Below are positions 2,292 through 51,703 of a DNA stretch of 64,000 nt, one piece after another (within the stretch, counting starts at the first letter, position 1; each line of letters opens with the position of its first letter). Under the pieces are notes generated by a model. That model did no database searches. It saw only the letters and a program-made list of their open reading frames with translations, and had not been told where the DNA came from. This stretch comes from Candidatus Udaeobacter sp. Lineage in GTDB: Bacteria; Patescibacteriota; Patescibacteriia; Magasanikbacterales; GWA2-37-8. The stretch is taken from positions 33,126-97,125 of the forward strand of contig DATION010000004.1 in the NCBI GenBank assembly GCA_035473115.1, in the 5' to 3' direction. The position numbers and the translations under genes were made by a program.

Positions 2292-3197
2292 TTATAAACC
2301 GGCTGCCTTTTTTAAGGATAAAACACCTTCAGCCACATCAACGGTCGGTTTCCAGCCGAGGATAGATCTGGCCAAACTTATATCGGCTTCAATAGACTTA
2401 ATTTCGCCAGAACGAACAGGCAGATTAACCGCTTCTCCTCCTACTAAAGCTGCTATTTCATTTACACTCGTCTGCTTCCCATAGCCAATATTTATCGGAC
2501 TGCCGTCACCAAGCTTGTTTTGGCTCCAAGCCAAAATATTTGCTTCCACCACGTCAGAAACATGGATGTAATCACGAGTACTTGTACCATCACCTACTAT
2601 CGTAAGTTTTTCTCCTTTTTTTCTTTGATCCAAAAAAACCGGTATCACCATAGGATATGATCCTTCGGAAAGCTTGCGCGGACCAAAAACATTAAAATAA
2701 CGAAGACAGACTGTTGGCAAACCATAAAGAGAAGAAAATAGTCTGCAATACTGTTCTCCGATTAATTTATGCAAACCATACGGGCTAAGCGGATTGGGCA
2801 AAGTTGATTCCTTTATAGGCAATAAAGTTTGGTTGCCATAAACTGCGCAAGAAGAAGAAAAAATTACTTTTTTTAAATTATTTTTTTTAGCAGCCAACAA
2901 TACATTTAATGTACCAGTGACATTTATCTCGTGCGTAGAAAGAGGGTCGTTAATAGAAACTGGCAGTCTGGGATCGGCAGCCAAATGAAAGACAGCTTCC
3001 GCGCCGGAAAAAATTGTTTCTATTTTTTTTAAATCTTTGATGTCTACTTGGTGAAATTCAGCTTTTTTGTTAATAAATTCTTTTTTACCAAGCATTAAAT
3101 TATCAACAATCACAACCTCATGACCAAGATCGATTAACCTGTCAACTAGGTGAGAGCCAATAAAGCCGGCCCCGCCGGTAACGATTAATTTAGACAT
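2292..3197 (-). CDS. NAD-dependent nucleotide-sugar epimerase/dehydratase (SDR family, UDP-hexose 4-epimerase-like)
   Basis: MSKLIVTGGAGFIGSHLVDRL N-terminal Rossmann motif and a YxxxK (YGLHK) catalytic motif. Length is 301 aa. Confidence 0.75.
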   Translation of the reverse strand: MSKLIVTGGAGFIGSHLVDRLIDLGHEVVIVDNLMLGKKEFINKKAEFHQVDIKDLKKIETIFSGAEAVFHLAADPRLPVSINDPLSTHEINVTGTLNVLLAAKKNNLKKVIFSSSCAVYGNQTLLPIKESTLPNPLSPYGLHKLIGEQYCRLFSSLYGLPTVCLRYFNVFGPRKLSEGSYPMVIPVFLDQRKKGEKLTIVGDGTSTRDYIHVSDVVEANILAWSQNKLGDGSPINIGYGKQTSVNEIAALVGGEAVNLPVRSGEIKSIEADISLARSILGWKPTVDVAEGVLSLKKAAGL

Positions 3198-3201
3198 AGA
3201 A

Positions 3202-4605
3202 TTAGACTTTGGCTTTTAAAAAGGCAGAACCTACAGCGATAATATCATAGCCTTTATTTTGCAATTTACTGTATTTATCCTGAATCATTCTGCGGCCGTC
3301 CATAATCAAATATGGCGGCGGGCAAACTGCCAGAATTTCTTCGTCTGCCAAACGAAACTGCGCCCAATCTGTCAAAATTAAACAGGCATGACTACCGGTT
3401 AAAGCAGTTTTTTCATTTTCAAAATATTTAATCTTTTCGTAGCGAGGGTCTTTATCTAACTGGAAAAAACTTTTAAACATTGTTATTGCCGCCGGATCAT
3501 AAATTCTAATTTCTTTAACGTTAGAATTAATCAGATGTTTAACTATATCTATAGCCGGTGAGTTTCTCACGTCATTTGTATTTTGTTTAAAAGCTACTCC
3601 TAAAATCGCAGCCACTTTTCCATCCCAAGAAAAACCAGCGTCCTTTTCAGCCCGGCTATAAAAATGATCGCGCTGAAACCTGTTTGATTCCAGAGAAAGT
3701 CTGACTTGGTGGGTGCTAGCACCGGCTTCTTCAAGCTGATGCGCCAAAGACGCGGCGTCTTTTATAAAGCAGCTGCCGCCAGCATAAACACTGTCATAAA
3801 GACCCCAAGTGCCAATGCGCGGCTCGGTATTAAGTATCTGTCTGACATTTTCAAAATTTATACTTGGAAAAAATTCGCAAAGCCTGCCAACCACATCGAA
3901 GGTAGTGGTTAACTTGTTAAATAGAATATAATTAGCCAATAACTTTCCGGCTGCCGCTTCATAAGAATTAGTTTCTATATATTTTATATTGGTCGAAGAA
4001 AACCTGGAATATACCTGACGCATGATTTTAAAATCTTTTTCTTTTTCCGCGCCAACCAGCACTCTGTCCGGCCTGATAGAACCTTCAATAGCTTTGCCTT
4101 CCACCAAAAATTCCGGATTGGAAACTACACCAAAATTTAAAACGCCATGCTCGTTCATGATCTTTTCTGCCATGCTTATCATATTTATCGGTACAGTGCT
4201 TTTATTGACAATAACAACATACTTGCTTTGCTGACCGCCATTTCTTTGCGCTAAATGTTCCGCCAATTTATTGGCCGCGTTATAATAATAAGACAAATCA
4301 GACTCCCCTTCCGCCCCCTCTTTTTCCGGAGTCGGCAGACACATAAATACCGCATCAATATCATCTAATGCTCGGGAAACAACCTTGTAATCATGGGTAA
4401 AAATTATTCTTTCTTTGTTATTTAATAATAATTTACAAAGACCATCTTCAAGCAAACAGGATTCGATCTCTTCTACATTATTTGAAGCCAACATTTTAAT
4501 TTTTCTTTCATCGACATCATATACTAAAACATCATGGCCGGAATCAGCCATTACCGCCGCGGAACAAGTACCTACATAGCCTGAACCTATATATAAAAGC
4601 TTCAT
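3202..4605 (-). CDS. nucleotide-sugar 6-dehydrogenase (UDP-glucose/GDP-mannose dehydrogenase family)
   Basis: MKLLYIGSGYVGTCSAAV N-terminus and the catalytic-Cys motif AGGSCFIKDA. Length is 467 aa. Confidence 0.8.
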   Translation of the reverse strand: MKLLYIGSGYVGTCSAAVMADSGHDVLVYDVDERKIKMLASNNVEEIESCLLEDGLCKLLLNNKERIIFTHDYKVVSRALDDIDAVFMCLPTPEKEGAEGESDLSYYYNAANKLAEHLAQRNGGQQSKYVVIVNKSTVPINMISMAEKIMNEHGVLNFGVVSNPEFLVEGKAIEGSIRPDRVLVGAEKEKDFKIMRQVYSRFSSTNIKYIETNSYEAAAGKLLANYILFNKLTTTFDVVGRLCEFFPSINFENVRQILNTEPRIGTWGLYDSVYAGGSCFIKDAASLAHQLEEAGASTHQVRLSLESNRFQRDHFYSRAEKDAGFSWDGKVAAILGVAFKQNTNDVRNSPAIDIVKHLINSNVKEIRIYDPAAITMFKSFFQLDKDPRYEKIKYFENEKTALTGSHACLILTDWAQFRLADEEILAVCPPPYLIMDGRRMIQDKYSKLQNKGYDIIAVGSAFLKAKV

Positions 4606-7866: not shown

Positions 7867-8766
7867 TTATGGCAATATATTTTTTAATCTTTTAATCAAT
7901 AAACTCATCGGACCTAATAATTTTACTTCAAAGATCATAACATATTTTTTCCAGCCCGAATAATGTTTATTGATAAACAAAACCAAACTATCCAAAGTGA
8001 TTTTTAATCGGCGTTTATCATATTTAGTTTTAAAGCTGCCCCCATAAACATGCATCACCGGGTCGGAATTTATAACCACGCATTTCCAATTATCTTTGCG
8101 CAAGCGCAAACAAAGATCCGTATCTTCAAAGTACATATAAAAATCCTCCGACATCAAACCGACTTTATCCAGCGCTTTCTTACGCAAAAGAATGGCCGCT
8201 CCGGTAACATAATCCAATTCAATACCTCCATCTGGTATAGCTTGAGGAAAAAGACCTATCAATTTAAGTTTGCGCCGAACAGCGGCCGGAAGCAATTTAG
8301 TAATCGGCAATAAGTAAAGAAATACATTTAAAGGTGTAGGAAAAAAGCCTCCGACCGATTGCCAAGACCTGTCCGGGTAAACCAATTGTGGACCGACAGC
8401 GCCAACTTCGGGGTGCAGCTCTATAAATTGATACAATTGCTCCATACTGTGAGCACCGGTTTCGGTATCGCTGCTTAACAGCCAGACATATGGCTCGGTG
8501 GCAAATTCACGAATAGCTCGGTTATTTGAACCGGCATAACCCAGATCTTTCTCATTTACAACATATTCTGCCTGAGGGAAAGCTGCTCGCAGAGCTTCAA
8601 CTGTTCCATCATTGGAATTATTATCAATCACAATCACCTGTTTTGGCAGCGAAGCTGCCGCGTATAAGGCCGCCAAAGCTTTGAGAGCAAAATCTTTTGT
8701 TTTATAAGTGGTAATGATGGCCGAAACCGGCAAAATATTTTTTTCCATACTGGCACTATTAAACAA
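7867..8766 (-). CDS. family 2 glycosyltransferase (tandem paralogue 1)
   Basis: VSAIITTYKTKD...VIVIDNNSNDGT GT2 signatures. Same length and order of motifs as the neighbouring gene. Confidence 0.7.
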   Translation of the reverse strand: MFNSASMEKNILPVSAIITTYKTKDFALKALAALYAAASLPKQVIVIDNNSNDGTVEALRAAFPQAEYVVNEKDLGYAGSNNRAIREFATEPYVWLLSSDTETGAHSMEQLYQFIELHPEVGAVGPQLVYPDRSWQSVGGFFPTPLNVFLYLLPITKLLPAAVRRKLKLIGLFPQAIPDGGIELDYVTGAAILLRKKALDKVGLMSEDFYMYFEDTDLCLRLRKDNWKCVVINSDPVMHVYGGSFKTKYDKRRLKITLDSLVLFINKHYSGWKKYVMIFEVKLLGPMSLLIKRLKNILP

Positions 8767-9646
8767 ATGATTTAAAACGCTTTAACAATAAACTTACTGG
8801 GCCAAGAATAATAATCTCCGCCAAAATCATTATCTTTTTAAAACCGGTGCAATTTTTTTCAACAAACAGCTTAAGACTGGTTAAAAAAATCTTTAAACGT
8901 TTTGGATCATATTTAGTCTTGAAGCTACCTCCATAAACATGCATCACCGGATCAGTATCAACCACTTTTATTTCCCATCCAGCTTGCTTTAAGCGTAAAC
9001 AAAGATCAGTTTCCTCAAAATACATAAAATAATCTTCACAAAGCAAACCGACTTTATCAAGCGCTTCTTTGCGCAAAAACATGGCCGCTCCCGTTACATA
9101 GTCAATTTCTCTGCTTTCTTTAGGCAGCAGTTGAGGAAAAATAACTATAGTTTTTAGTTTACGGCGCAAAAATTTAGGCAGAAAAATAACAAACGGGATT
9201 AGATACATAAAAACATTGGCAATTGACGGAAAATAACCGCCCACCGGCTGCAGCTCGCGGGTTGGATATACCAATTGAGGGCCAAGTGCGGCAACTTTTG
9301 GATTAGCAACCATAAAATCATACAGTTCTTCCAAACTCTTTTCACCGGTCTCTGTGTCGCTATTTAAAAGCCAAACATATGGCTGAGTAACAAATTGCCT
9401 GATTGCCTGATTGTTGGCTTTGGCAAAACCCAAATTTTCCTTATTGGCTATAATTTTAACTTGCGGAAATTCTTGTTTCACAATACTGGCAATATTATCT
9501 TCGGAGTTATTATCCACCAAAATAACCTCTTGCGGCTGAACGCTGGAAGAAAATAATGCCAAAAGAGCGCGGCGCGTTAGTACTTCCGTTTTGTAATTGA
9601 CTATAATTACCGCAACTGGGATAATTTTATTTTCCGGCATAATCAA
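8759..9646 (-). CDS. family 2 glycosyltransferase (tandem paralogue 2)
   Basis: VAVIIVNYKTEV...VILVDNNSEDN. Clear similarity to 7867-8766 (shared DPVMHVYGGSFKTKYD and LNSDTETG blocks). Confidence 0.7.
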   Translation of the reverse strand: MIMPENKIIPVAVIIVNYKTEVLTRRALLALFSSSVQPQEVILVDNNSEDNIASIVKQEFPQVKIIANKENLGFAKANNQAIRQFVTQPYVWLLNSDTETGEKSLEELYDFMVANPKVAALGPQLVYPTRELQPVGGYFPSIANVFMYLIPFVIFLPKFLRRKLKTIVIFPQLLPKESREIDYVTGAAMFLRKEALDKVGLLCEDYFMYFEETDLCLRLKQAGWEIKVVDTDPVMHVYGGSFKTKYDPKRLKIFLTSLKLFVEKNCTGFKKIMILAEIIILGPVSLLLKRFKSFV

Positions 9647-22313: not shown

Positions 22314-22543
22314 ATTCGAAATGAGTGAGGGGAATAATTAAATGTATTTAATTATTGCCGAACGAATGAGATTATATGGGCAAAGCCCATATAATATTAA
22401 ATCAAAGAATAATTACTTACTTTTTCATTGTTAGTATAACTATTTCTTATAAAAAATGTCAACAGTAACAGTAAATTTTCTTAAATTAATAACGCTCGGC
22501 CATCTTTTGGACAACCGAGCGAAACTACTCCTTACTAAATTAA

Positions 22544-23455: not shown

Positions 23456-23640
23456 GACTTGCTCCTTTAGTTGTTGATCGTGGAATTAACTCACTCCATC
23501 ACTATTCCAAAAATTTTTCGAAATATTAACAGTGCGAGTGTTGACCAGAACCAACTTGATATGGCTGAAAAACTTCTTTCTACTTTATCTTCCGACCAGC
23601 ATGGGTCAGAAAGACATGATAACTTATAACAAATAAACAA

Positions 23641-23672
23641 AAAAGTCAAGGATACATCCTCGACTTTTTTGT
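23641..23672. terminator. hairpin terminator after the oxidoreductase gene (overlaps the -35 region of the islet-1 promoter)
   Basis: AAAAAAGTCAAGGATACATCCTCGACTTTTTT. An imperfect 9-bp stem flanked by an A-run and a T-run. Confidence 0.5.
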
Positions 23673-23681
23673 TTAGCAAAA

Positions 23682-25533: not shown

Positions 25534-25685
25534 AAGCGAAATGAGTGAATAAAATATTTAGCTTGCTAGAATATTTTTGAGCGAATGAGTTTATATACTA
25601 ACGAAGCGAGTAAAAAGTATGTTTACATACTTTTTCGAGCAAGTACAGTAAATATGGAACATATATAGGCTTTAGCTTCTATATA

Positions 25686-27998: not shown

Positions 27999-28919
27999 TT
28001 ATAAAACATGCTTCTTAATATAATCTATTTGCTGCTTAATTCCTTCTGGCAAACTAGTTTTTAGTTGCCAGCCTAAATTTTGTAACTTACGGCAATCAGC
28101 CAAAGTAATTTCTGCTTCACCTGCCAAATTATCTTTATATATCGGATCAATACTCGAGCCGGTCAAATCTTTAATTATTTTATAAATTTCATTAACTGAA
28201 TAATTTTCTCCGGATCCGATATTGTACACTTGATTATTGGCGCTATCTTCTTTCATCAGTAATACATGCGCGTCATTAATATCATCAATATAAACAAAAT
28301 CTCGTCTTTTTTCTCCAGTTCCATAGATTACCGGCTGCTCGCCGCGCAATAAATTAATAATGAAAGCCGACATTAGCGGCGGAATAGTGCGCCGATAATC
28401 TTGCCGCGGACCATAAACATTAAAATAACGCACACCGATGCTGTCTAAGTTATAAAACTCTTTATAAGCTTTGGCAAAATAATGCCCGGCCACTTTGCTC
28501 ATGGCATAAAAACTATGCGGGTCCACGACAGTTTCCGGAGTGGGAAATTTGTCCGTACCTTCATAGACAGCCGAGCTTTCGGCATAGATAACTTTTTTTA
28601 CACCAGCTTTGGCACTAGCTGCAAACACATTCACCGTGCCGGTTACATTTATATCAGAAGTTTCTAAAGGGTCTTTTTGGCAATCACTGATGCAATTTTT
28701 GGCAGCCAAATGAAAAACATACTCCACATCTTTAAATAACGGATGAATTTCTTTTGAACGGATATCTATTTTATGAAAAAGAACTCCTTCCGGTATTTGC
28801 TCTTTGACACCATAAGAAAGGTCATCTATGCCGATAACTTCATGGCCTTCGGCAAGCAACCTAACTGCCAAATTACTGCCGATAAAACCGGCAACTCCGG
28901 TAACAAGAATTTTAGCCAT
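27999..28919 (-). CDS. NAD-dependent nucleotide-sugar epimerase/dehydratase (SDR)
   Basis: MAKILVTGVAGFIGSNLAVRLL and YAMSK (YxxxK). Length is 306 aa. Confidence 0.7.
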   Translation of the reverse strand: MAKILVTGVAGFIGSNLAVRLLAEGHEVIGIDDLSYGVKEQIPEGVLFHKIDIRSKEIHPLFKDVEYVFHLAAKNCISDCQKDPLETSDINVTGTVNVFAASAKAGVKKVIYAESSAVYEGTDKFPTPETVVDPHSFYAMSKVAGHYFAKAYKEFYNLDSIGVRYFNVYGPRQDYRRTIPPLMSAFIINLLRGEQPVIYGTGEKRRDFVYIDDINDAHVLLMKEDSANNQVYNIGSGENYSVNEIYKIIKDLTGSSIDPIYKDNLAGEAEITLADCRKLQNLGWQLKTSLPEGIKQQIDYIKKHVL

Positions 28920-33124: not shown

Positions 33125-33126
33125 AT

Positions 33127-35958: not shown

Positions 35959-36117
35959 TTTACCAATTATTTTTTAAAAAAGCAACCTTTTATGTATAGT
36001 GAAAACCCCTATAAAATACAACACGCCCCGCCATTCTCATCCACGTTGGACTTGACAGCGGAGCGTTCTGACTCCTTGTTGAGACCCCATTTTCCATCAG
36101 GGGTAGAGCGCTATCTT

Positions 36118-36714
36118 TCAGCGCCAGGTGGAGAGCAAGGCCTTGTAGGCCTTGGGGATGATCAGGTCGCGGTGGAGATCCACCGTGACCTCGGGCAGGT
36201 GGTCCACGGGGAACCAGCCATGCCGATCGTCGACCCGCGGATCACTCTTGAGAGCGATCAGGAAGATCATGGAGTGCACCGTACCGCGGGCCTCCGACGT
36301 GATCTCCTTGCCGACCAGAGTGAATCCGGAGATCTCGGCTCCGAACTCCTTTCCGAGTCTGTTGGCGACATGCTGGTCCTGCTCGCCATGGCGGTAGAGC
36401 GAACCAGGCGCATGCCACTCGCCCGGATAGGCGGTATCATCTGGGGCTCGCCGCCGCAGATAGACCTCTGCAGTGCCACTCTTGCCCTTGCGGAAGAGCA
36501 TGGCCTCGAAGGCCGACGTGGGCCAAAGCCTCATCGTTGAGTCGCAAAACTTCGTTCCCACCGGCCTGGTGTTGTCGATCCGATCCATCTGACCAGCGAT
36601 CATCTCCCTGAAACCATCGCTGTTGGGATCCATCCGACCGAGCAAACCAGCGACCAGCGCCTTGAACTGATCGCTCTGGGGATTGAGATTCTCTGGGACT
36701 ACCAATCCGTTCAT
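36118..36714 (-). CDS. hypothetical protein on a second high-GC islet (weak Nudix-like GxWxxPG...GE...R...E.G pattern)
   Basis: 198 aa. GC is roughly 55% over about 36020-36720. A GGAGGG SD sits 7 nt before the ATG. PGEWHAPGSLYRHGEQDQHVANRLGKEFGAE loosely fits a Nudix box. Confidence 0.35.
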   Translation of the reverse strand: MNGLVVPENLNPQSDQFKALVAGLLGRMDPNSDGFREMIAGQMDRIDNTRPVGTKFCDSTMRLWPTSAFEAMLFRKGKSGTAEVYLRRRAPDDTAYPGEWHAPGSLYRHGEQDQHVANRLGKEFGAEISGFTLVGKEITSEARGTVHSMIFLIALKSDPRVDDRHGWFPVDHLPEVTVDLHRDLIIPKAYKALLSTWR

Positions 36715-36858
36715 TTTTCACCCTCCCGTTAATTGTTCTGGTTCGCTTCTCGACTCTTACTGGGAGTCAAAGAAGACATATTAAATTATCATAAATTAAC
36801 AAAAAAGTCAAGGTTTCCCCTGACTTTTTCGCTAATGATACGAATTATTATTTTAACT

Positions 36859-44310: not shown

Positions 44311-44399
44311 AATTATAGTTAAGTGAGAGAAAAGGTCGTTGGCGAACTTTTCCGAACGGACTGTAATTATATGGGCTTTAGCCCATATTAAAGATAACT

Positions 44400-47810: not shown

Positions 47811-47972
47811 CTATTTGTTGCTTTCATCAGATCTACCCGCCCTTGCCTGTTCCGCCGCCTGACGAAGCTTTCTCTTTTGTCCAGGTTCCGGAGGAACACT
47901 GGGCTTTGCATCTCCCCACATGAAGACAATTACTGCCAACAAAAATATGATGAGAGCGTTGCTGTTTGCCAT
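47811..47972 (-). CDS. small (53 aa) single-TM peptide with charged C-tail, unknown function
   Basis: Starts at the second ATG, which is preceded by AGGGGGA. A TTGACT-17-TATAAT promoter sits at about 48003-48040. GC is elevated (roughly 48%). Confidence 0.35.
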   Translation of the reverse strand: MANSNALIIFLLAVIVFMWGDAKPSVPPEPGQKRKLRQAAEQARAGRSDESNK

Positions 47973-48064
47973 AAAATTCCCCCTGTTGTTATTAGCCAAC
48001 ATTATACGCTAATTTTAGTAAAAAGTCAAGCATAAATAAGTCATAAAAAATCAATTAAAAAAAC

Positions 48065-50569: not shown

Positions 50570-50574
50570 AAAAT

Positions 50575-51699
50575 TTAATTTTCTAAAATTACACGGCTTA
50601 TAATCAACTCGAGTCTGTCTCTGGCTTCAGCTAAACTAATTCTATTTTTTGGATTTTCTTCTTTCATTTCATATATCAAATTACCAAGTTCAAATTTAAT
50701 GCCGTAGTCTAATTTTTTAAAGTACGATTCATGCTGATGAGCAAATGATACTTTGCCTAAGCATACGCCAAATTGGAAAGTCATTTCCGCTTCTTCAGTT
50801 ACCATAGAACCATCACTTTTCCATTCCGGCGGGATATAACTGTCGTCATTTATAGGAGCAAGTCTAACGGGAAGAAAATCATCTTTCATTACCACACCTT
50901 CAATATCAAAAAGTATGCCTTTTTCTTTACCATCCTCTATCACCAAACCTAGGTTATCTAATTTTATATCTTGTAAAACCAAATCTTTTTCCGATAAATA
51001 AGCTGCTCCAGCTAAACAATCTTTAATGACTTTTAGGGTTGTTAAAAACACTTCTTTGGTTTTTTCTGATCCTTCTAAGTACTTATCTAGAGTCTGAAGA
51101 TTTAATTTTTCGTAAATAGCCTGTCCAGTCTCAAAATTATAATTTAAAACCTTGACTAAATTAGGATGATAGCCTTTGGTTTGAAAATCTTCCAATAAAA
51201 TTTTCATAGCCGCTGCCTTACTATCTTTTTGTCCTTCTAAAACTTCTTGATCTTTATACACAGCTTCACGCCCTCTAGAACCATCAACTATTTTTTGGAC
51301 AATATTTTTACGATTGCCTGGTATCTTTTTTATCAAATCTTTAACTACTAAAAAAATATTTTTATCAACTCTGCCTTTTATAGCTTCTAGTAAAGCCTGC
51401 CGCACTCTATTTATAACAGCCTCAGCTTCATCTTCGTCTAACTGGACGGCAGCCATTTCCTGTCTTATTTTAGCCAACAAACGACTATTGTTAAGATCGT
51501 CAATTATAAAAACACGCTGCTCTTGGGTATCTTTTATATTTTCTAAGCTACTAACCAAATGATCCGCGTAAGTTTTAATATCGTCAGGAAAAATTACATC
51601 CTGTTCGGTCATCTTTCTTTCTAAATTTTTCCTCGGATCTATTTCGTGTCTAGGAGAAATATTTTTAATATCAGCAGACAAGCCTTCTTTTGAACTCAT
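50575..51699 (-). CDS. divergent eukaryotic-like protein-kinase-fold protein (paralogue 2) with acidic helical N-region
   Basis: Start trimmed to the ATG at 51699, 4 nt after the rpoD stop. AAMKIL (VAIK-like Lys), GYHPNLVKVL, LVLQDIKLDNLGLV, ILFDIEG, YIPPEW and NPKNRISLAEA. Paralogous to 49502-50569. Confidence 0.45.
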   Translation of the reverse strand: MSSKEGLSADIKNISPRHEIDPRKNLERKMTEQDVIFPDDIKTYADHLVSSLENIKDTQEQRVFIIDDLNNSRLLAKIRQEMAAVQLDEDEAEAVINRVRQALLEAIKGRVDKNIFLVVKDLIKKIPGNRKNIVQKIVDGSRGREAVYKDQEVLEGQKDSKAAAMKILLEDFQTKGYHPNLVKVLNYNFETGQAIYEKLNLQTLDKYLEGSEKTKEVFLTTLKVIKDCLAGAAYLSEKDLVLQDIKLDNLGLVIEDGKEKGILFDIEGVVMKDDFLPVRLAPINDDSYIPPEWKSDGSMVTEEAEMTFQFGVCLGKVSFAHQHESYFKKLDYGIKFELGNLIYEMKEENPKNRISLAEARDRLELIISRVILEN

Positions 51700-51703
51700 A
51701 TAT

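Follow-up and report, generated by a model that had tools for sequence, protein, structure and literature searches.

A conserved terminator-promoter-leader module precedes the two GC-rich genes of an AT-rich Patescibacteria glycan-biosynthesis locus and is probably a reused expression element

Two GC-rich genes in a 64-kb stretch of otherwise AT-rich Patescibacteria-type DNA are each preceded by a copy of the same short module, in which a predicted intrinsic terminator and a promoter overlap and lead into a structured leader. The stretch (hereafter the window: all 64,000 nucleotides from positions 33,126 to 97,125 of contig DATION010000004.1) contains ~58 open reading frames (ORFs), and just two of these, one encoding an IMPase-like and one a NUDIX-like protein, are GC-rich; the other ~56 have a GC content of about 0.37. 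Islet 1 (22.5-23.45 kb) has a GC content of ~0.50-0.60 and islet 2 (36.0-36.75 kb) of ~0.60-0.65, against a background of ~0.37. Genes within about 10 kb on either side of each islet are concerned with glycan biosynthesis only, and there is no adjacent intI integrase. The features of the two islets, in which GC1 and GC3 are the GC contents of first and third codon positions and the family table is the set of 15 module copies described below, are as follows.

23634..23675, minus strand: predicted intrinsic terminator hairpin ahead of islet 1 (RNA minimum free energy -23.9 kcal/mol, z -8.2; terminator scan, 19 pairs)
23621..23651, minus strand: predicted islet-1 promoter, with CC and the -35 TTGACT (23649-23644), a 17-nt T-rich spacer, and the -10 TAAGTT (23626-23621) (sequence and family table)
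23586..23616, minus strand: islet-1 5'-terminal stem-loop (GUCUUUCUGACC / GGUCGGAAGAU) (fold)
23456..23555, minus strand: islet-1 proximal leader, with a structured element, a CA-rich tract and the Shine-Dalgarno sequence AAAGGAG (blastn to 3911-4019, 3073-3150 and 2496-2522 of related contig L006)
22544..23455, minus strand: islet-1 gene, IMPase family, 303 aa (Pfam PF00459, E 1e-23; GC 0.52, GC1 0.65, GC3 0.47)
22493..22521, minus strand: islet 1's own GC-rich terminator (terminator scan; fold -21.1 kcal/mol, z -5.5)
36795..36836, minus strand: predicted intrinsic terminator hairpin of the GT2 gene upstream of islet 2, overlapping the promoter (RNA minimum free energy -24.5 kcal/mol, z -8.0)
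36783..36813, minus strand: predicted islet-2 promoter, with CC and the -35 TTGACT (36811-36806), a 17-nt spacer ending in TGa, and the -10 TAATTT (36788-36783) (sequence and family table)
36745..36777, minus strand: islet-2 5'-terminal stem-loop, core GACUC-CCAGUAA-GAGUC at 36768-36752 (fold and covariation)
36118..36714, minus strand: islet-2 gene, NUDIX-like, 198 aa (homologs carry PF00293; GC 0.61, GC3 0.77)
36023..36066, minus strand: islet 2's own GC-rich terminator, conserved with related contig L004 (loop CAAGUCCAA; fold -29 kcal/mol, z -4.3)

The hairpins ahead of the two islets resemble intrinsic terminators of the preceding genes. Each has the form of a Rho-independent terminator as judged from its sequence, that is, a stem-loop and a U-tract located 3' of a stop codon on the same strand. 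The islet-1 hairpin (AAAAAAGUCGAGG-loop-CCUUGACUUUUUU, with a 19-bp stem) starts 7 nt past the stop codon (23682) of the Gfo/Idh/MocA gene to which it would belong, and the islet-2 hairpin starts 23 nt past the stop codon (36859) of the GT2 gene; each is followed by UUUUUUG. None of 200 shuffles folded as well as the 19-bp stem of either islet. We regard the hairpins as terminators that share DNA with the next promoter because the stem contains the -35 hexamer of that promoter; in islet 1, the 3' arm CCTTGAC and the U-tract overlap the promoter. The initial annotation, an earlier description of this DNA from its sequence, had assigned TTGACT and the T-tract to a promoter, an assignment that holds, and had overlooked their second role as the 3' arm and U-tract of a hairpin. 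This second role explains why the module motif also matches the opposite strand immediately beside each copy, and the dual terminator and promoter role goes far to account for how unusually well the spacer is conserved.

The promoters appear to be of the sigma-70 type and of the extended -10 class, based on their hexamers, spacer and optional TGn. The islet-2 promoter has the extended -10. Predicted transcription start sites (TSSs) are at ~23617-23614 and ~36779-36776 on the minus strand. Both -10 regions had previously been placed at a 15-nt spacing (TATAAG and GATAAT); we found that the best-supported elements are TAAGTT and TGaTAATTT at a 17-nt spacing, although the two readings overlap.

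The predicted transcripts begin with a stem-loop. The conserved ATGTCTT is at the predicted start site and folds as the 5' strand of the 5'-terminal stem-loop in both window copies. For the islet-2 type of stem, which we could compare in six genomes, 94% of cells were paired and five of the six pairs had two-sided changes; the observed score was reached by 0 of 500 shuffles, and every slid control collapsed. In the NUDIX-type units this stem bears a near-invariant CCMGUAA loop. Downstream from the stem-loop there is a CA-rich tract and then a strong Shine-Dalgarno sequence. In both window copies there is an ATG at the predicted transcription start (36729-36779 and 23606-23617, minus strand). 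The one in islet 2 opens a leaderless upstream ORF of 16 codons (MSSLTPSKSREANQNN*) that ends 3 nt short of the Shine-Dalgarno sequence, the one in islet 1 opens only 3 codons, and in the second copy on L004 the ATG is in frame with the gene. A conserved leaderless upstream ORF at ATGTCTT was ruled out, as it is not kept in L006, L003, L042, L079 or L087.

The proximal leader of islet 1 is also structured (fold -29.8 kcal/mol, z -4.0), and its ATG-proximal part (23546-23440) matches an intercistronic element that is present three times in a GC-rich operon on L006. This ~80-nt element (…CCCTCAC.CTATCAGTGT.CCGAAA…TTTCGGGATAGTGATGG…CAACAAC) is found at 23473-23555 (minus strand) of the window, ahead of the IMPase gene, ahead of successive genes of the L006 operon (about 2470-2530, 3073-3150 and 3911-4000), and on L054. 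It had no Rfam match and could be a processing, stability or translation element. A known structured RNA leader, such as a riboswitch or T-box, was ruled out by scans with Rfam 15: no family was found in the leaders, the window at the gathering threshold yielded three tRNAs only, and L003, L004, L006 and L007 had no match at E<=1.

The sequences upstream of the two islets are copies of a single module and not chance look-alikes. Both of the sequences reported in the initial annotation were located on the minus strand of the window, copy 1 at 23651 to 23596, within 1 nt of where it had been placed, and copy 2 at 36813 to 36760, ~10 nt away from the approximate range that had been given. The 16-mer CCTTGACTTTTTTGTT is the same in both and is unique to them within the window. 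In a BLAST search of the window against itself, positions 23605-23669 and 36766-36829 (minus strand) were 80% identical across 66 nt (E 2.4e-5); only three internal repeats were listed altogether, this one included. The similarity did not collapse on proper alignment: it held in a MAFFT alignment and continued upstream of the previously described start, into AAAAAGTC(R)(R)GG. Chance or low-complexity similarity was thereby ruled out by the self-BLAST (E 2e-5), the shuffles and the profile described below. An assembly chimera was ruled out because an independent Logan assembly of the same sample (SRR9656165) has both islets in context and because homologous islets are present in many other assemblies.

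The module is a family with a fixed architecture. We compiled 15 copies from the window and related contigs. A -10 hexamer of the form (T/C)A...T is located exactly 17 nt past TTGACT in all 15, with an extended TGn in nine. The overlapping hairpin is present in 11 of the 15 copies, and three more have a separate terminator that ends at most 23 nt upstream. The 5' arm of the hairpin (GTCRRGG) varies only between A and G, facing an invariant CCTTGAC, and the loop varies freely in length and sequence. Since changes from A to G and back retain pairing as G.U, this variation indicates a structure at the RNA level, and it is the pattern expected of a terminator and not of a DNA recombination site.

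The module is specific to the islets within the window. A profile built on the 15 copies with nhmmer and run against the window at E<=10 with filters off recognized two sites only, the two islet copies. Eight other recognizable promoters in the window have ordinary TTGACA/T-17-TATAAT sequences without the shared flanks. The initial annotation had named one further promoter as a member of the same group.

48001..48029, minus strand: third site, an ordinary TTGACT-17-TATAAT promoter upstream of a 53-aa ORF (47811-47972, GC 0.49) (sequence; not among the profile matches)

This promoter exists as described. It has CTTGACTTTTT alone in common with the module, however, and the profile rejected the site at 48029 as a family member.

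The association of the module with GC-rich genes extends to other genomes. A scan for a 21-mer of the module in one genome per species gave 46 matches, one per genome. Most were generic promoters or chance matches with downstream ORFs of normal GC content. Among the 11 matches in Patescibacteria, those on L019, L024, L033, L038 and L042 precede strongly GC-rich ORFs, and that on L023 precedes a tRNA. A metagenome scan found further copies on L062, L071, L078, L079, L087 and L106 and probably one on L054. We tested the association in a gene-agnostic way by subtracting the GC content of the remaining locus from that of positions +60 to +660, which was possible for 96 matches. The median excess was 0.005 (n=96) and the distribution was bimodal; nine of the 96 had an excess of at least 0.10, all of them Patescibacteria members of the family, and the upstream control gave 0. 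The possibility raised at the outset that the motif would often be found before ordinary genes was not borne out in the window or in the 11 Patescibacteria genomes, each of which had one strict match. With two copies in 64 kb and one strict match per genome in 11 Patescibacteria genomes, the module does not have the abundance of a REP (repetitive extragenic palindromic), MITE (miniature inverted-repeat transposable element) or Correia-type repeat, and no duplications of the target-site type flank either window copy.

Some copies are located outside glycan clusters. The same promoter precedes GC-rich units at L062 5485-6590 (the same as L024) and L078 3862-4177 (the same as L019). The former encodes a 316-aa unknown protein with a ~150-nt GC-rich leader and is between ribosomal protein L27 and NifU/MraY; the latter is an 81-aa ORF adjoining SecDF. 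The scans also picked up an unrelated palindromic repeat, CCTTGACTTTTTCGTTCTTTTGTGTCAAGACAAAAGGACA, because it has the core CCTTGACTTTTT in common with the module. It is present in L056, L058, L060, L069, L072, L082, L096, L101, L102, L108 and many other metagenome contigs, which are probably of the Bacteroidota type.

Several other features of the window were noted. The other two internal repeats are 8017-8219 with 8906-9107 (78% over 208 nt) and 2670-2702 with 28397-28430 (34 nt, 91%); the adjacent ORFs that hold the 208-nt repeat (7867-8766 and 8759-9646) are probably tandem paralogs. An intergenic palindrome, ATATGGGC(TTTG/TAAA)GCCCATATAAT, which contains a TATAAT and runs on into C(A)TTCGTTCGG / CAGTCCGTTCGG, is shared by three sites on the minus strand (about 22374-22395, 44366-44388 and 25660-25685), upstream of a SIS gene and two others, and may be an operator-promoter. 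A region of ~1.1 kb (50570-51703, minus strand) is coding-like, yet a simple ORF picker found no ORF of at least 70 aa in it; it may be a frameshifted gene or a miss of the ORF picker.

The islet genes are compositionally atypical and are not at equilibrium. GC content rises in the 5' untranslated region and the rise ends at the unit's own GC-rich terminator. GC1 is 0.59-0.70 in islet genes, compared to about 0.48, and GC3 is up to 0.95. At third positions, base usage resembles that of ordinary GC-rich genomes (A3 < T3, C3 >= G3) and has no strand-specific signature; it gives no support to a strand-specific, transcription-coupled mutator as the source of the GC-richness. Fourfold sites between syntenic orthologs are near saturation. 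When synonymous changes were polarized, those from G or C (S) to A or T (W) far outnumbered the reverse: 45:4 in islet 1 (W1), 10:1 in L006, 15:2 in L004, 15:3 in L071, 11:4 in L087 and 6:1 in islet 2 (W2), counts that are small for some lineages and that rely on parsimony, which is imperfect near saturation. Changes in the flanks were balanced, as in stationary sequence. The excess of S to W changes in the islets over balanced flanks indicates that the islets are ameliorating. It also disfavors stable maintenance of GC content in situ by selection or biased conversion, less firmly for W2, L003 and L087, in which counts are small and changes between G and C (S to S) are frequent. From the high share of S to S changes in these three, it seems that they diverged to a large extent while in a GC-rich setting. 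Together, the composition points to genes that are non-stationary and originated in a GC-rich setting, with the islet-1 gene apparently partly ameliorated.

The module is shared with related Patescibacteria, where it precedes GC-elevated NUDIX, IMPase-like, HAD and His-phosphatase genes. The head of islet 1 (23675-23588) is 80% identical over 89 nt to positions 1278-1366 of L006 (E 1e-17), where it opens a GC-rich operon of five genes encoding an EamA-like protein, two HAD phosphatases, DUF218 and IMPase. Since the islet-1 leader matches the intercistronic repeat of L006, we think that islet 1 is a deletion-collapsed form of this five-gene operon. On L004 (Parcubacteria Gr01-1014_13), three tandem copies of the module are located between GT2 and DegT, each before its own GC-elevated gene: in order, a His-phosphatase gene, an unknown 211-aa gene and a NUDIX-like gene. 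The second of these copies is nearly identical to the islet-2 promoter of the window through ATGTCTTCT and precedes a different gene. In distant relatives the promoters have diverged; the coupled design is kept in L109 and L122, and the promoters of L111, L112 and L120 are ordinary. From these similarities we infer that the two window copies are paralogous, by descent or duplication (promoter reuse), and not convergent.

The islets do not behave as recent insertions. Their composition is atypical in the manner of a recent genomic island (GC 0.52 and 0.61 versus 0.37). The initial annotation had described them as inserts, but the NUDIX-like gene is syntenic in at least six other genomes and both gene families were found in Patescibacteria-type contexts only. 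The NUDIX-like gene (X) is in the same GT2->X->DegT slot in L003, L004, L042, L087 and L106, and adjoins DegT in L033 and L079. The flanks of this slot are 82-91% identical to the window, whereas X is only 23-67% identical, and the X genes consist of one GC-rich clade and three very divergent GC-rich singletons. An AT-rich NUDIX-like paralog adjoins the GC-rich copy in the same slot in L004 (4675-5226), L042, L079 and L106; the window is without it. The AT-rich paralogs form a clade with 46-70% identity internally and about 30% to the GC-rich genes.

Homolog searches for both protein families returned Patescibacteria-type proteins or contexts only, and all 18 of the homolog contexts examined were GC-elevated islets in AT-rich or moderate-GC glycan clusters; the most distant family members (L109-L112, L120 and L122) are also islets. 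A GC-rich donor lineage was not found, and the profile search returned Patescibacteria only. A recently acquired genomic island was rejected, as neither absence from the syntenic slot nor a donor was found. No phage vehicle was found: a search of IMG/VR gave no NUDIX-like relative and seven generic motif matches. The GC-rich islet pattern is not described in the paper that we found on horizontal gene transfer in Patescibacteria. The NCBI label of the source metagenome-assembled genome, Candidatus Udaeobacter sp. (Verrucomicrobiota, locus tags VLK22_), conflicts with the comparisons, in which every gene had its affinity with Patescibacteria: the window has a GC content of 37% and proteins 82-91% identical to Parcubacteria Gr01-1014_13 and Magasanikiibacteriota contigs. 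The source contig is probably mis-binned or mislabeled.

Based on these results, we believe that the islets are independent, insulated transcription units, each behind a copy of one conserved module of ~65-90 nt that serves as a reused expression head, an explanation to which we give a probability of roughly 0.7. In the arrangement that we propose, a hairpin of intrinsic-terminator form (AAAAAGUCRRGG-loop-CCUUGACUUUUUU) starts 7-25 nt past the point where the AT-rich gene before it stops; its 3' arm is, as DNA, the -35 (TTGACT) and its T-tract the first part of the 17-bp spacer, followed by the -10, often with TGn. Initiation is predicted near ATGTCTT, the putative 5' strand of the 5'-terminal stem-loop, ahead of the CA-rich tract and the strong Shine-Dalgarno sequence. 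The module would block read-through from upstream, re-initiate transcription strongly, and give the gene behind it, whose GC-rich codons would suit the host poorly, a stabilizing 5' stem and an efficient site for ribosome binding. It appears to move with GC-rich nucleotide- and sugar-phosphate hydrolase genes in variable slots of Patescibacteria glycan-biosynthesis clusters, and may be inherited with these phosphohydrolase units and now and then duplicated among them.

Several points weigh against this explanation. The start sites, the termination and the strength of the promoter are all predicted from sequence. The predicted distance from the transcription termination site (TTS) to the TSS, ~20-25 bp, is larger than the ~10-bp mode of known coupled pairs, though within the definition of at most 35 bp. 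The exact 16-mer is kept in four copies that lack the overlapping hairpin, so that the terminator constraint alone is insufficient to explain why the spacer is conserved. A copy retrieved by a pattern scan has the 16-mer by construction. The copies reached by way of protein homologs form an unbiased but small set, in which W1, W2, L003, the three copies on L004, and L006 have the 16-mer and L007 does not. Finally, the specificity scan of the source genome covered the 64-kb window only.

The module might contain a site recognized by a dedicated regulator (an operator) or by an alternative sigma factor, in which case the GC-rich phosphohydrolase genes would form a co-regulated regulon; this is unlikely in our estimation and compatible with a reused expression head. 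Conservation reaches past the hexamers (CC...TTTTTGTTNWTTT), including in the four hairpin-less copies, and the genes that follow the module make a coherent group in function (NUDIX, IMPase, HAD, His-phosphatase, HIT-like and DUF218). Terminator palindromes can double as transcription-factor sites, according to a recent preprint (bioRxiv 10.64898/2026.08.19.745784). However, no regulator gene is linked to the module, the hexamers are those of the housekeeping sigma factor, and similarity fades with phylogenetic distance into ordinary promoters (L111, L112 and L120), as it would under descent and not at a fixed binding site.

A more speculative possibility, to which we assign a similarly small chance, is that the module is a docking-and-expression adaptor, behind which genes of a GC-rich, so far unsampled pool (perhaps that of the hosts on which these epibionts live) would be recruited or swapped repeatedly in fixed slots of the glycan clusters. 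Three findings fit such an adaptor and are not explained by a single old transfer. At least four mutually very divergent GC-rich NUDIX-like lineages (23-41% identity) occupy one slot with flanks of 82-91% identity; fourfold sites between syntenic orthologs are saturated and have a high share of S to S changes, which implies divergence in GC-rich surroundings; and all of these genes are at present decaying towards AT.

It is quite improbable that GC-rich cassettes were inserted through the hairpin as a site of DNA recombination or capture (attC-like, REP- or MITE-like, or the target of an HUH or tyrosine recombinase) to which the promoter is incidental. Such a site would be consistent with an inverted repeat at the 5' boundary of every compositional islet, with the divergent GC-rich NUDIX-like genes (23-67%) between flanks of 82-91% identity in the GT2->DegT slot, with the three tandem promoter-gene units of L004, and with the presence of the same module before non-homologous genes. 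The common insertion or capture mechanism that the initial annotation had raised, next to a dedicated regulon, has, however, neither a recombinase nor direct repeats nor matching 3' ends to point to it. The ~27 kb annotated around the islets contain no integrase, transposase or recombinase, and the self-BLAST of the window found no shared 3' ends or islet-flanking direct repeats; the 3' ends of the islets carry neither a copy of the module nor a repeat. The A and G changes in the arm pair as G.U in RNA and would give G.T mismatches in DNA, the loops are free to vary, and four copies have no hairpin. The order of the arms (GTCRRGG...CCTTGAC) is the inverse of attC R''/R', and one to three copies per locus is unlike REP and MITE families.

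The weakest alternative, that the module is simply the generic consensus promoter and terminator of the organism, its copies alike through convergence or chance in AT-rich intergenic DNA, draws on the standard sigma-70 design of TTGACT-17-TAnnnT and on the matches to 21-27-mers outside Patescibacteria, which are ordinary promoters or chance matches before normal-GC genes, as well as on the L023 match, which precedes a tRNA, but it is largely refuted, and we consider it very improbable, given identity that runs from the hairpin arm across the spacer into the initial transcribed region (80% over 66 nt, E 2e-5), the alignment of the W1 and L006 heads over 89 nt, the eight window promoters without the motif, the lack of a further profile copy in 64 kb, the single strict match per genome, and a strong tie to downstream GC excess that would be unexpected for a generic promoter. 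The view of the two upstream regions as copies of one promoter and leader module, rather than chance matches or the organism's generic promoter, was therefore upheld.

The module has features in common with several known systems. In attC sites of integrons, R'' (RYYYAAC) and R' (GTTRRRY) cores are at the 3' end of each cassette. Like integron cassette arrays, the module loci have tandem single-gene units, a boundary inverted repeat and variable cargo in a conserved slot. They differ in that they lack an integrase, every unit comes with a promoter of its own, and the hairpin behaves like an RNA terminator; the arms (GTCRRGG...CCTTGAC) have another core in the inverse order, and the hairpin is at the 5' end with no site at the 3' end. 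An attC or mobile-element assignment was rejected on these grounds (no intI, the wrong cores, and a hairpin 5' of the unit). Horizontally acquired genomic islets undergo amelioration, a concept of Lawrence and Ochman, and the window islets are similar in their atypical GC content, raised GC1 and GC3, S to W decay and stationary flanks. Unlike such islets, they are syntenic, belong to a family found in Patescibacteria only, have no donor or mobility genes that we could find, and include several divergent GC-rich lineages per slot.

The leader resembles known mRNA stabilizers. Stem-loops at the 5' end stabilize mRNA in the Escherichia coli ompA leader and in Bacillus subtilis leaders of the aprE/ermC type. 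The module likewise has a stem-loop a few nucleotides from the (predicted) 5' end, an unstructured tract and a strong Shine-Dalgarno sequence. A stabilizing function of the module is putative, and the conserved CCMGUAA loop hints at specific recognition, for which the known stabilizers have no need.

The module also resembles putative mobile promoters, which are homologous upstream regions before non-homologous genes (Matus-Garcia, Nijveen & van Passel 2012; PMC3575422). The survey that described them covered positions -150 to -50 from the start codon in a genome set without members of the candidate phyla radiation (CPR) (PMC3575422). Like them, the module has at least 80% identity over at least 50 nt before non-homologous genes in one genome and is common to different taxa; the two window copies, 80% identical over 59-66 nt and upstream of unrelated IMPase-family and NUDIX-like genes, are at the lower bound. 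In contrast to mobile promoters, the unit also contains a terminator and a 5' stem-loop and goes with compositionally atypical genes.

The closest counterparts are promoter-coupled terminators, which are defined as TTS-TSS pairs within 35 bp between tandem genes and in which experiments showed that a -35 can be formed by the DNA of the stem-loop and that the promoter also draws on the T-tract (Fletcher, Forrest, ... Grainger; bioRxiv 10.64898/2026.08.19.745784). As in these, bases of the module would be common to a terminator and a promoter between tandem genes, and by prediction it falls within the definition, with the -35 in the 3' arm of the stem and a TTS-TSS distance of at most 35 bp. It differs in being one sequence version that has spread within genomes and from one genome to another in association with GC-rich genes, and in being known in Patescibacteria by prediction, whereas promoter-coupled terminators were characterized experimentally.

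Based on these comparisons, we believe that the module is a genuine reused expression element of a known kind, joined to a compositional anomaly. What sets it apart is a composite element (terminator, promoter and stabilizing leader) that appears to be copied as a unit before unrelated genes, within and between genomes, together with a reproducible anomaly in which a coherent set of nucleotide- and sugar-phosphate hydrolase genes is GC-rich (GC3 up to 0.95) in AT-rich Patescibacteria glycan clusters, at conserved positions and with no visible donor. The islets are a natural test case for how compositionally foreign genes are expressed in reduced genomes and for which forces (amelioration, selection or biased conversion) raise or wear down the GC content of single regions in bacterial genomes. 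Should the module prove portable, engineers of CPR-like or other AT-rich bacteria would have in it an insulated expression part that is ready for use.

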